Positions 14,801 through 64,000 of a stretch of DNA of 64,000 nucleotides are shown here, one piece after another. The stretch covers positions 50,716,001 to 50,780,000 of the forward strand of contig OZ024745.1 of the NCBI GenBank assembly GCA_964016885.1, written 5' to 3'. Under the pieces are notes generated by a model. The model had not been told where the DNA came from. It did not search any database and saw only the letters and a program-made list of their open reading frames with translations. Source of the stretch: Eledone cirrhosa (lineage: Eukaryota). A program made the position numbers and the translations under genes. Every line of letters begins with the position of its first letter. Position 1 is the first letter of the stretch.

Positions 14801-16463
14801 GGATGACTGGTGATAATTTTCACATCTTCATTACTTAAAAAATCTGAGTGCAACGCACTATCATAACGTCTTTCGTTATTTATTCAAAATGCTAGAACAT
14901 ATTGCGATAAAATTTAACGACTTGTTTCAAAGTTATTTGTCATTGCAGGACCAATATTAATCATTATCAATTAGACCATATTGTTGCTTTTGTGTCTCAT
15001 ATTCACGAGGGGTTGTTTTTAGGCAATGAACAAGTGTTGTATATATATATATATATATATATATATATATATGGAACGATCGGTCCACGAGCGTATTGAA
15101 TAACTGTAGGCACACTATTAATCGTAATAGTCACCTGCTTTAATTTTTGTCCATTTTATCTCCTTGTGAATATGAAATGTGGTGGTCAAATCAAACAATA
15201 GTTTTCTCTAAATGATCTGAGATATTCAACAGTACTCTCTTCATTTATTTTCTTGGAATGTGTGGTCACTAGTTACCTGATTTGTTGTGTAGTAAGCGAT
15301 GTTTTATATTCTTGCCATCTTTATTGTCTTCGTATTATGTTAATTTGGGATTTTGCATGCTTTCATTGCACAACCGAGTGCAGCTCTGTGCACTTGGCTA
15401 CGTTAATGGTTTTGTGATTTCTATCATATTGAAAAGCTTTACACAATGAGTGCTACTAGTATTCAGTTTCAACATTTAGAAGTCGATTTTTGCTGGAGAA
15501 ACATGGGCAGGAATGGTACCCTGAAACAAAAATGACTGGAGGGTGTAGTTAATGAGGGACATGAGGGTGGAAACATTTTATAAACTACAAGAAGAGACAG
15601 TGTGTGTCTAGTGGGTTTGGATGGAAGGGGTGAATAATTAGCTACTTTTGAGAAGCTACTGTAGTAGTTAGAATATCAATAGAGCACCTGCAGACCAGCG
15701 GTTGTAGGGAGTTTGTAACTGAGTCTTTGCTGTAGAATGACTTAGCTGAGGATGTGGTCTTGGTTATTTATGTATGTGTTAGCGATAAGATAAGAGAAAT
15801 ATTCCGTTGTGAGACTTACGTGATTTTTTTAGGCAGTCAGGAGCTGATCAGAGCTGAAGTATTTTCTAATCCTGGAGTGGAAATTTTAAGCTGAGAAGCA
15901 ATTTAAACTGTTATGATGTGGGATCGCCAAAATAACAATGAGATATTGTGAGGGTTAATACATATTTTAGCAACTTTGAGGATTTAAATTACATTTTGCC
16001 AACGACTAGGGAAAGAATGGTGATAACATTGTTTTCTCGAATCGCAACAATAATGTTTACACTTCTATTAAACGACCAATTAATTTTCTTTCCCATATTC
16101 TGTGAATATTGCAATAGGAGAGTTTATTTCTCTTCTGCTATTATTTAGCTAAAACCTGTTTGACCTTTAGCTTCAATTATAAGACGTCAGCTTTCTCTCA
16201 TATTCAAATATCAATGGAGTTAACGTCAGAGTTCATAATTCCGCAGAATTTTCAAATTTATATGCGTAATAAATCAGTATGGTGTCAAATATTGATTTTA
16301 ATGTTTTTAATATTGGCTTCCAAAAAAGGCACAGTATTGGCAAGATTCGTACAGTGTCTGATAAAATGACATTGTGGTATTTTATCTGGTGTAGAGCCAC
16401 ACAGCTCCGTAGGGAAAATTTGAATATCAATATTCAGATCAGCATTACAATGGCGCCATTCAA

Positions 16464-16530
16464 GGTACGCACGTTTTGTTGATCGTTGATGATCAAGTTG
16501 ATTATTAACGATCAACGAAACGTGCGTACC
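16464..16530. repeat. 33-bp-arm fold-back palindrome; imperfect pairing extends to ~16430-16552
   Basis: GGTACGCACGTTTTGTTGATCGTTGATGATCAA-G-TTGATTATTAACGATCAACGAAACGTGCGTACC. Confidence 0.9.
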
Positions 16531-19500
16531 GCTGTAAATCTGACCTGAATATATATATATATTTACAGAGAGAGAGAGAGAGAGAGAGAGAGAGAGAGAG
16601 AGAGAGGAAATGTATACATATGTAAATCAGTAAAACATCCTTACACTTACTTATCTATGCAGCAATGAGTATAAGCAAGAATTTATTCACATCACGGTTC
16701 ATTACATGAATGTTTGAAAAACACAATGCATGGCTACACAACCCAACCAAGCGTACACGCAGACACACAGAAACCCACACACATATTTAATATTATCATT
16801 TATATGTACACACACACACACACACACACACACACACATGTATATATATATATATATATATATATATATATATATATATATATATATATATGTATAATTA
16901 ATATTACTCATCACAGTTGTGTGCTACCTAATGTTTCAAAGCCTGCCCCTGTATTTGTCATAATGTTATCTTATGGCAAATACAGGGACAGGTTTTGTGT
17001 GTGCGTGTGTGTGTGCATACACGCATACACAGCCACACAGACACACACAAATAAACACACACACACACACACACACACACACACACACACACACACACAC
17101 ACACACACACACACACACATATATATATGCATATATGTTCCCTTCACTCATAGATAAACCATATGAACATTCACACACTCACTGTCTTATGTGGTTAATA
17201 CATAAACCATAAAGATTTAGGTAGATGTTATTTTATAAATTTCAATCTACAGTGATTTAACAAACAAACAAAATTAATTAGATTAAAAACTTATTGAATA
17301 AACTATTTTACATTTATAGAGTTGTCTACAATATCGTATGACATTTTTAAAATAAATGTCTAACAAGACAGTGATGTAGACAAGTTTACCGTAACCATTT
17401 CAGTACCACACTGTTCCGTTTCAAATTCTAGTAGGAAAAATTGCTCTTTCATTCTTTAAGGGTGAGGACATAATTACCAGTAATATACTACTGTAGGTTC
17501 TACATAAAATCATAAGACATAATATACTTCATCAAACCAATTCGCTATACTCATGCAAATACTGTATGTGCTGTTTAGTCACGAGTAGACCCAGGTCGAA
17601 TCATATCTCGTGTAGTTAAATATAGTCAAATCATGACCACCTTGTTTATATATATGTTTTTAAGAGTTTAGCATCGACGCAAATACTCATTTTATTTTTG
17701 TCTTTTTAACAATTTGGCGTCTGGTTTGAGGAGCATTAGACTGTCATTTCTAGCAGATTGGAGACAACGTAGAGGAATATTCGTTATTATTGATGTGATT
17801 ATGCATATGAGAATATTTGCTTTTTTGTTGCTTATTCTCTGTGTGTGTTTGCTCGTGTGTTAACGCGTGTGTGTGTGTTTGTGTACTAAAGTGTAAAGAG
17901 AAGACAGAAAGAATGATAATGGGGTTAAATGGAATTATGCGCTTTGAAGAAGGATGATGGGAAAACATTCCCCCAAATGATGCCTAAATCGAGCAGCTAA
18001 ACACATGTGTGCACAGGCACACACACACATATATACGCATACGCACACACACACGCATAAAGACTCACGCACACATATACGTCCCACACAAATACGCACA
18101 TACACACATGCTGATAGTTCGATCAATAGATAGATATTGTGATAAGACGGGATGGCAGGAAAATTGAAAGTTTATATATATATCATATGCAGGTATGAGT
18201 ATTAATACATGCTTGCATTTCTGTGTTATGAATGCACTTATATGTATGTATATATTCATGCACACATACATACACACCTGTGTGCATGTATATATATATA
18301 TATATATATATATATATATATATATATATATATATATATATATATATATATGCATGTGTGTGTGCATTTGTATGCTGAATCCCTTGGTATATGCGGGCAT
18401 ATATGCATATAAACATATATTACACAGATAAACATTAAGTCAATGTATGCGCAAAACTGAATAGCTGAACGTTGAACATATAGCAGGAAGATATATATAT
18501 GTATATGTATGTATATATATATATATATATATATATATATATATATATATATATATATATATATATATATATATATATATATAATATTATACGAATATAG
18601 GTGTATACTTATACCGACATTAAAAAACAAACAAAAATACAAAACAAGCAAATTTTATCTGTTGATACACATAAACATATATTTTATATTTATAAATATT
18701 GATATTTTTCTTCATGCAATCCATATACATACTAAATCAAACATAAAGTAAAAATCTGTATTAAAAAAAATACAAAATCTTATACACACACTCGCACACA
18801 CACACACACACACACACACTCACACACACACACACACACACACACACACACACACACACACACACACACACACACACACACACACACACACACACACACA
18901 CACACACACACACACACACACATATATATATAAATATACACAAGCATATGTATGCCTGAATGGTGTATATTTGGGTCTCCATATGTAATATATAACATAT
19001 GACTAACACACATACTCAAAGGTCCACACAATTATACTTATACAAATGAACACATAAAAAAACAACAAATTTTGTGAAAAATATTTTCGTTTGTAGGAAT
19101 ATTATAATGTATTGTCTTTTATTTGGAGATATTGTACTTATTTTTCTGTAAACTATGTATATATTGATGTATATCTCTTGTATATTTGTAAAAAATATAT
19201 GAAACAAAAAATGTTTGTTTGTGTTACTTTTTTTTGAATTTTCAAATTATAATAGTGACTTGATTTTTTCTTCTATAAATGTTCGATCTTTAATTGAAAA
19301 GTAATATTTTTAGGACTCACAGTGATCCAAGGATAACTATTTATGCAGAATACAGTCTATATTATAAAATCTATGACATACAATGTCGGCATCGCTTAAA
19401 CTATAACCCTCCCAATGAAGGTATTTTCACAGCCCAATGACTAAAATAGTAACAAAATAAACGAATAAAAGATTTCGAACACAATAAAAACTTCAGAATT

Positions 19501-20093
19501 TATTAATTATTAGTAATTTCTAAACTTAGAATAGTACTTTACTTGAAAAATGAACTCCTTAACATTTTGTATTGACATTTTCGAGGGAACAACGAAATCC
19601 AAACCAGAGAACATGAGTAATATTTTCTTTGATTTATTTATTATGTATTTCTATTTAATCCTGTATTTCTTAAGTAAAGTGATATTTGAACCAGAAAATA
19701 GCAGCGTATCACACACAGTCGACACCGGACATGACATGCAAGATATATTGGTAAGTTGTTGTTATCGTTGTTGTTCTCGTCGTCGTTGATGTTGTTCAAC
19801 CCCCAGATGAGTTCTGATAAGCATATCTATGATCAAAGCGATCTGGCCTTGACCATCCGAATTGGTTTTCAGACAATATACCCAGAACTACATATATCAG
19901 TGTTTTGAGAAAAAATCTGGTTGTTATTTCTAGTACGTCAAGCGATCAAGTAGAAGATCACTCGCTGGTTCATTTATAATGCGAATTCCAGAAATATGTC
20001 TCAGCTTTACATAATTGATGACTCAAAACCTGTGAGATATTTAACATTGTCACCACCCACATATAATGACTACTTGGATTTTATTGACGTTTG

Positions 20094-62662: not shown

Positions 62663-62890
62663 CCTCGTAACATTATATTGATACTGCCAATAATAATAAT
62701 AAATGAATACATGTTAATAAATAAGTTATAACAAAGATGATAAAAATAATACAAAATATGATAAAAAATAAATAAAAAAATTTAATATGTGTGCGAAGAA
62801 AAGTAAACATAGTATGATTATTGAGAGTAGTTGTGGTGTTGGTGGTTAAAATATAGAGATATGATAGTATAAACATGAAAAGGTTAAATA

Positions 62891-62998
62891 TATTTCTGAT
62901 GATCTGGTTAAGCTAACATCGTATTTAAAATTGAGTGGCACAGCTTCAAGTGTTCAGCAATTTTTAGACAACTTAATCAGTGAAACAATTGTTAATAC
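62891..62998 (+). ncRNA. Type I hammerhead-like motif with 79-nt stem II domain
   Basis: TATTT-CTGATGA-T-CTGGTTAAG...CTTAATCAG-T-GAAA-CAATTG-TT-AATA; stem I is weak. The minus-strand twin has a mutated core (CTGGTGA). Confidence 0.62.
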
Positions 62999-64000
62999 TG
63001 TAAATAAAAACCTTTTTTGTAATGTTGACCATGTTATTCTTCACTCTTTCAATATTATTACTCCAAGATAAACTTACATAGACATTCCCGAGAACTCACA
63101 AACTCGCCACCTACTGAAACCTCTTGTTGAGTCAAACAACGCCGTACGCTAAAACTATCCACAATACGGAGTATTCACAACCTCTAACTGGATTACCTAT
63201 AACGATATTTTGTTATCCCTTATATCTATATAAGGGATAACAAAATATCGTTATAGGTAATATATATATATATATATATATATATATATATATATATATA
63301 TATATATATGTAAATATCTTTAAGTCGTTTGGAAGCCTCGACAATGCAAATGGGTAAATCTCCGGGTAACAAGATCCGGTGGTGGAGAGAGAGAGATGTA
63401 AGTGGGTGTACGTTGAGATGCGTGGTGTGTATAAGATGTGTAAATGTGTAGAAGAAAGAAGGGAAGAGTATAAAGGATAAAATAAAAATAACAACACAAG
63501 AGAGAGTTACCTTGGGAGAGATTTAATAGTCCCTATATATTTCGGATTCACATCCATCAACTGGGGTTTTTTTCCGGGGTAAAGGTTGTCTGTCGGACAG
63601 GTGCGAAACGCGTCCTCCGCTGTTTGTTGTTTTGAAGATCTGAGGTATTCGGCAGAGCGCGCGTGCGCGTGAAATGGGAAATGGGTCGGTCGGGCAGAGG
63701 TCAGCGGCCAAATATTGGAGTGGGGTGGCGCTAGCTGTCAGTCCATTCTCTGCCTGTTTGTTAAATGTTTCTGTGTGTGTGTGTGCGTGTGTTGTTGTCT
63801 CGCTTGAGTGTGTGTGTGTGTGTGCGTGTGTTGTTGCCTTGTTTCTCTGTATTGGCAGTGTAGTATGTTCGTATGGTGGAATGCTACTGTGTGTGTGTGC
63901 GTGTGTGTGTGTAATTGTCTCGTTTGTGTGTGCGTGTGTTGTGTGTTGCTACATCGTTTGTTAACTTAAACCAGCCATCTCATTTCGCTTCTCTCTAATC

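Follow-up and report, generated by a model that had tools for sequence, protein, structure and literature searches.

Outward-facing hammerhead pairs in a contig of Eledone cirrhosa as probable two-ended insertions of Penelope-like elements

Six inverted repeats lie within a 64,000-nucleotide stretch of Eledone cirrhosa DNA (assembly GCA_964016885.1, contig OZ024745.1, positions 50,716,001 to 50,780,000 of the forward strand; hereafter the window, numbered from its first letter), and the hammerhead-like motifs in their arms all point outward. We interpret them as dead insertions of six families of Penelope-like elements (PLEs) in (TA)n, where each head-to-head pair would consist of two cDNAs that were primed separately and met at their growing ends, a reading to which we give a probability of about 0.65. 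The arms are of PLE origin, each family has two fixed 3' end sites, the inner junctions are variable, the arms face outward and a 3' tail is carried by exactly one arm. A first-pass annotation of the window had placed all six repeats at about the positions found here, with motifs reading away from the centre, and had ascribed them to PLEs of several families, an idea already in print (PMC4209133 and the available parts of PMC3846280 and PMC8557442). Both the outward reading and the origin are borne out for all six, with the correction that one structure is a composite of two insertions.

We labelled the families by the outer coordinates of their repeats: A (47127/49232), B (61965/63055), C (45403/45646), D (40573/40699), E (52103/52578) and F (16464/16530). 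A first look at the genome gave lower bounds on candidate copies of at least 2000 for A, 1886 for B, 802 for C, 348 for D, 1077 for E and 104 for F. Forty candidates per family were scored and up to 30 loci retained, a locus being a top hit with 1.5-kb flanks. Two locus sets were used, one from the arm-family searches with duplicates removed and one selected by the tail alone (A, B, C and D); the D part of the first set is biased, its query having favoured tail-less arms.

At other loci, all six arm families run into sense-strand PLE open reading frames (ORFs), five of Hydra type and one of Neptune type as judged from sequence motifs and tblastn. Longer copies of family A carry RWR, DKT, YRDDG and CxCX5C, which are features given for Hydra in the available text of PMC8557442, and A is therefore placed with that type; CxxC/CxH and (TA)n targets complete its set of Hydra features. 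Family D ORFs have RWR, DKT and CxCX5C, and locus L240 holds a near full-length D element with two direct hammerhead-bearing pseudo-long terminal repeats (pLTRs). Two loci of C share a Hydra-type endonuclease and the untranslated region (UTR), the ORF being represented by its endonuclease part, with CxCX5C present. The sequence upstream of B, and four loci of F, are linked to Hydra-type ORFs by similarity to the A and D proteins, in degraded frames. In about 10 of 30 loci, E is preceded on the sense strand by a Neptune-type reverse transcriptase (RT) and endonuclease, with translations that show, by eye, a CX2-5CxxC linker ahead of a GIY-YIG domain with CCHH. The organization is that of endonuclease-bearing (EN+) PLEs, with an RT and C-terminal GIY-YIG ORF upstream of the hammerhead on the same strand and an optional 3' tail extension in all six families. 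Every family has longer, ORF-bearing copies, and the separate non-autonomous class that had been considered for the ORF-less structures is not upheld.

Each family has two fixed 3' ends, one closing the body and the other closing a tail of a further 60-170 nt; copies mostly end in (TA)n and their 5' ends are variable. Inner junctions differ between loci and the arms reach PLE ORFs, contrary to the ORF-less arms with fixed terminal inverted repeats (TIRs) that had been named as grounds for abandoning a PLE origin. Outward head-to-head pairs occur at 65 loci; there are two inward pairs, both with arms more than 700 nt apart. The tail is on exactly one arm in 64 of the 65 head-to-head pairs once duplicate loci are removed, and in 41 of 42 when the biased D set is left out (p=1e-11). 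Among tail-selected loci the partner is tail-less in 62 of 64 (B 15/15, D 21/22, A 14/15, C 12/12), and both exceptions, with partners 247 and 714 nt off, may be separate insertions. The arm reaching further 5' is the tailed one in 9 pairs and the tail-less one in 18, with 23 equal and 14 uncertain; since either arm can be the longer, neither was always copied from the other. Head-to-head joints with varied breakpoints are also present in public short-read contigs, which counts against an assembly artefact; of four sequencing runs, one had no contigs covering the stretch.

In our model, the GIY-YIG endonuclease would break a (TA)n tract and leave two DNA ends, of which one would prime reverse transcription from the tail site and the second from the body-end site; short annealing or a few inserted bases would then link the cDNAs. 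Two cDNAs, one per RT start site, fit all classified pairs, and the outward direction of the hammerheads follows simply from the position of the motif, a short way in from the 3' end of every arm. A purified PLE protein cleaves both strands and extends them without need of hammerhead cleavage, and its reverse transcription starts at two internal sites flanking the tail (PMC11167929). In contrast to the one-sided tail here, the start site was no different between the strands in that in vitro work.

The arm ends of family D suggest, in addition, where the template began. Across 27 tail-selected D loci, 22 of 49 arm ends lie at -6/-5 relative to C3 of the core, the first two bases of stem I, as do 46 of 71 core-containing arms over 52 loci in a partly biased set. 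TATAAA begins 29 nt upstream of -6 in 4/4 long D copies checked; in a fifth, L181, the TATA stretch is deleted. All 13 of the -6 ends outside a perfect AGCT palindrome carry an extra G where the genomic base is C, and an extra G opposite the cap is familiar from L1 and from cap analysis of gene expression (CAGE). Solo D copies too start at -5, directly after (TA)n, no upstream exon sequence common to the D junctions was seen, and at L240 the unique 5' region begins with the tail, which leads straight to the ORF. The -6/-5 ends are thus likely to mark cDNAs that copied the 5' end of a capped transcript completely, not random truncations. Priming in D would have taken place on the 5'-terminal pLTR copy of a capped transcript beginning at the first base of stem I, and both cDNAs would run off the cap, gain an extra base and often anneal at the AGCT palindrome. 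Such products lack the upstream TATA box and are predicted to fold into simple hairpins, which makes them likely to be inert by-products.

A D-related subfamily with a CTGATGA core makes short head-to-head palindromes of the same form (L060, L184, L203). Two D tailed arms (L090, L331) begin at about the hammerhead cleavage site, which points either to cleaved RNA as the template or to stem I as a source of microhomology. A TATA-initiator (Inr)-like spacing is discernible by eye in family C.

A descriptor search for minimal type I hammerheads, one of the checks put forward in the first-pass annotation, found three cores in the window under strict settings against a shuffle mean of 0.04 (100 shuffles, maximum 1), and six under a relaxed stem rule against 0.18 (60 shuffles, maximum 1). 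Five of the six lie within A, C and E. The sixth, at 50372(-), is a solo candidate with CTGAGGA, a long stem II, GAAA and a bulged stem I, and matches none of A-F. The degenerate core is in weak excess (17 against 7.4 +/- 2.7 in shuffles, maximum 14), and Rfam returned no hammerhead match at E<=1 in the window, its output being microsatellite-driven microRNA (miRNA)-like noise. A CUGANGA and GAAA/UH core with three stems is present in both arms of A, both arms of C and the young E copy, and in B and D by family majority. The cores claimed for the arms are accordingly complete in A, C and the right arm of E, while the left B arm is mutated, both D arms in the window have G at position 17, and F retains hammerhead 3' halves with no 5' core. 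Position 17 is A in 84 of 86 D family arms, and with G17 the D copy in the window is predicted to be uncleavable. The family F core has U3 in 33/34 arms and C8 in 29/34, which cannot form the required 3-8 base pair; its stems are 81.5% paired, with covariation not above shuffles. Across copies, core positions mismatch less often than other non-CpG positions (49/2848 against 925/25610, 1.7% against 3.6%, p=1e-8), so the objection that the core might be no better conserved than its flanks does not hold, although the difference is individually significant in D and F only and is confounded by how copies were selected. Selection in the source elements explains it most simply. Editing of the RNA template from A to G was considered and rejected, there being no sense-strand excess (A>G 140/23714 against T>C 170/21805).

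Several other explanations keep part of this picture. One strand may have copied itself, by fold-back or self-priming, to give the inverted arm of a PLE insertion, as proposed on an antisense template in the available text of PMC3846280 and as the term fold-back in the first-pass annotation implied. Perfect AGCT palindromes in D (17 arm ends), the palindromic junctions of C, D and F in the window and the rare variants shared between arms in B and D all favour it. The tail asymmetry speaks against it, two-tailed pairs being nearly absent, and many junctions carry inserted bases instead of a hairpin seed. Moreover, a copy cannot exceed its template, so simple self-copying fails in the 18 pairs whose tail-less arm extends further 5' with the tail on the partner alone. 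To remain tenable, fold-back would need an additional template switch or trimming at a later stage, and we regard it as unlikely. It is somewhat doubtful, too, that the -6/-5 pile-up in D reflects stalling of the RT or preferred annealing at stem I, or else a 3' splice site. In favour of such causes, the position coincides with the AGCT palindrome and has a terminal CAG, an intron of Drosophila virilis Penelope stops where helix I begins on its 5' side (PMC4209133), and A and B have their own loose clusters near the core; the extra G at the non-palindromic -6 ends, the TATA box at -29, the solo copies beginning right after (TA)n and the lack of a shared exon sequence at the junctions are better accommodated by a capped start.

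The short palindromes might instead be mobile in their own right, as non-autonomous DNA transposons resembling miniature inverted-repeat transposable elements (MITEs), with TIRs, or as retrozyme-like units, and the hundreds to thousands of candidate copies per family and several D loci with an identical AGCT-centred palindrome could be cited in favour. Against this, the ends are asymmetric with a tail on one side, inner junctions vary by locus, arms continue into PLE ORFs, A-F pairs are not tandem arrays and D palindromes have no promoter; this explanation is highly improbable and already largely refuted. Symmetric fixed TIRs around a fixed interior, as in a DNA transposon or MITE, are absent, target-site duplications being unreadable in (TA)n. 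The head-to-tail tandem units of non-LTR (non-long terminal repeat) retrozymes are likewise lacking in the head-to-head A-F pairs, and the few direct repeats are pLTRs or separate insertions. Hardest to credit is a selected ribozyme function of the paired hammerheads, for instance as a dimer of the two arms. Two D monomers do co-fold in prediction as a dimeric hammerhead through stem III (-30.2 against 2 x -9.9 kcal/mol) and core columns are conserved, but that conservation can stem from the source elements and the window copies of B, D, old E and F are damaged. As the arms are on opposite strands, one transcript holds a hammerhead and its own antisense, fully paired in a single hairpin; the D palindrome has a predicted fold of -93 kcal/mol against -13 kcal/mol for a single arm. 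Read-through RNA of a palindrome would thus be one long hairpin, rather than the ribozymes that PLE retrotransposition had been thought to generate here.

Some of our results weigh against the joining of two separately primed cDNAs, or against its capped start in D. The model is drawn from genomic copies, with no intermediate or transcript observed. Microhomology of >=2 nt outside D is not above chance (3/20 against 14-21%), and paired arms have more rare variants in common than random copies have in B and D, not clearly in A or E. Top-hit loci with 1.5-kb flanks miss distant partners. Pfam gave no RT or GIY-YIG hit on the PLE ORFs, and the clade calls were made by motifs, not by a tree; a homologue search returned nine sequences. 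The base preceding -5 ends is G in 6 of 16, T in 8 and C in 2, and some extra Gs could have been templated, as repeats of the opposite arm. Only D combines a sharp pile-up with an extra G; ends cluster loosely near the core in A (12/44) and B (12/42) and tail-selected C has no start pile-up, so we confine the cap claim to D.

Within the window, where (TA)n adjoins most structure ends as had been noted, the six structures differ in completeness. Family A (arms 47127-47366 and 49008-49232) has a long arm at 47065-49007(-), a 5'-truncated, frameshifted Hydra-type PLE with RT and GIY-YIG remnants at about 47397-49007, its core at 47194(-) and its tail at about 47065-47126. Its short inverted arm, 49008-49232(+), is tail-less, with core CTGAAGA at 49165, a palindromic stem III and a GUU triplet. 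The arms of B (61965-62127 and 62893-63055) are 98% identical and 765 nt apart, as the annotated spacer of about 770 bp had indicated, and that spacer is the B 3' UTR split by a dispersed SINE-like (short interspersed nuclear element-like) repeat at about 62485-62690. The long arm, 61965-62892(-), is this Hydra-type 3' UTR, tail-less and with its core mutated to CTGGTGA at 62124; the short arm, 62893-63225(+), has core CTGATGA at 62896, a long stem II and a tail at 63056-63225, lacks most of stem I, and is followed by an inverted 34-nt tail-end piece at 63228-63261. The SINE-like repeat recurs at 22588-22771 and 25537-25719 and at loci L007 and L021, and its position inside the B 3' UTR differs between copies.

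The arms of C (45403-45520 and 45529-45646) are separated by 8 nt, not by the roughly 30 bp annotated. The tail-less arm, 45373-45520(-), bears a complete long-stem-II hammerhead with core at 45503, and the tailed arm, 45521-45805(+), a complete one with core at 45546 and a GUA triplet. The palindrome arms of D, 40573-40635 and 40637-40699, meet at a near-palindrome within the hammerhead core, as described, and the element reaches about 80 nt past the palindrome then delimited (40584-40688): its tailed arm spans 40504-40640(-) and its tail-less arm 40632-40692(+), with core CTGAGGA at 40634 and G at the cleavage position. A solo tail-less E copy at 40786-41078(-) shares the (TA)n patch of D. 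Family E (52103-52186 and 52495-52578, 85% identity) had been taken as a single event (52141/52539) and instead comprises an older and a younger insertion within one (TA)n patch. The old, Neptune-type one, 52019-52287, combines a tail-less arm at 52019-52186(-), 74% identical to a natural reference copy, with an inverted tail piece at 52216-52287(+); the young one, 52398-52750(+), is a tailed, 97% copy with core CTGAAGA at 52501. The two E arms have 22 differences in 159 nt, none shared. Family F (16464-16496 and 16498-16530) is, as annotated, a fused pair, an old Hydra-type one at 16406-16549; the joint is at the 5' edge of stem II and the left arm continues into a tail.

Other repeats share the window. 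A seventh inverted structure at 49245-49956 belongs to an abundant repeat (2870 candidates) with a unit of about 330-340 nt that forms partial head-to-tail tandems and inversions in (TA)n; neither a CUGANGA core nor a linked ORF was seen in 20 loci, and it looks like a hammerhead-less, non-autonomous PLE-like element. A repeat of about 720 nt in (ATGT)n tracts, also without a CUGANGA core, has three copies (34656-35375, 43347-44069 and 8274-8865), two of them inverted 8 kb apart. Three ORF fragments, without Pfam hits, resemble known elements in their motifs: a mariner transposase at 21276-21671(-), a restriction-like-endonuclease non-LTR element at 44300-44953(-) and an L1-like RT at 31445-31966(-). 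A hAT/Spin-like transposase remnant lies at 54467-56298(-) (PF18658, weak PF05699).

It is tempting to speculate further. Tentatively, PLE integration may be obligately two-ended and asymmetric, with a dimeric RT-endonuclease priming at the tail site on one end of the target and at the body-end site on the opposite end. For at least one Hydra family, the cap would sit on the first base of stem I, the ribozyme would be a 5'-terminal cap-removing device, and the commonest insertion would hold two complete copies of the start of the mRNA, covering its first 60 and 140 bases; as F spread with a U3/C8 core, either cleavage would be dispensable or a new core variant would work. The origin of tandem and inverted PLE structures and the role of the hammerhead are named as open in the available text of PMC8557442 and PMC3846280. 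Thousands of fairly young copies in one genome amount to a record of integration intermediates, and two sharp predictions for the in vitro system (PMC11167929) follow, one from the one-sided tail and one from the extra G at a site positioned by a TATA box. For annotation, such palindromes should be entered as PLE ends and not as MITEs, hairpins of miRNAs or functional ribozymes.

Pairs of hammerheads left on opposite strands by truncated PLEs are an already published architecture. PMC4209133 described minimal hammerheads in the pLTRs of PLEs, together with dual motifs that lie on opposite strands at distances of about 100-700 bp and were ascribed to truncated PLEs. Like those, the hammerheads here have a minimal core, a short palindromic stem III and several unrelated families per genome, and C, E and F share the unpaired base before stem II. 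They differ in the very long stem II inserts of B (about 79 nt) and C (about 57 nt), in the U-U mismatch of A, B and D where G10.1-C11.1 was reported, and in the U3/C8 of F, the reported core covariation being U3-A8. The Hydra clade of Craig et al. 2021 (PMC8557442, in its available text) matches in the C-terminal GIY-YIG, RW[KR], DKT, CxCX5C linker, CxxC and CxH, in (TA)n targets and canonical hammerheads, and in an inverted 5'-truncated copy with a tail often at one end only; compared with that text, the present genome holds five or more families side by side, each with hundreds to thousands of candidate copies, and the near-obligate one-sided tail is counted. Family E resembles the Neptune clade in its YVDD RT, CX4CxxC linker, GIY-YIG with CCHH-like residues and hammerhead about 190 nt past the stop codon, and departs from it in an imperfectly palindromic stem III and a CUU triplet.

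Adineta vaga Penelope (Arkhipova et al. 2013, PMC3846280, in its available text) likewise has head-to-head inverted pLTRs with junction palindromes, an optional tail on one inverted pLTR, and TATA and Inr-like sequences in a pLTR; self-priming was inferred there, whereas our counts favour two separately primed cDNAs. Non-LTR retrozymes, in the available parts of PMC7229834 and bioRxiv 10.64898/2026.07.22.740005, are also PLE-derived, ORF-less and hammerhead-bearing, and form head-to-tail tandem units in contrast to the head-to-head single events here. A literature search, with supplements and most subscription papers outside its reach, found nothing on a cap-derived G or a counted tail asymmetry in PLEs. 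What this genome adds to these systems is a tail counted as one-sided almost without exception, together with what is likely the signature of a cap at stem I.

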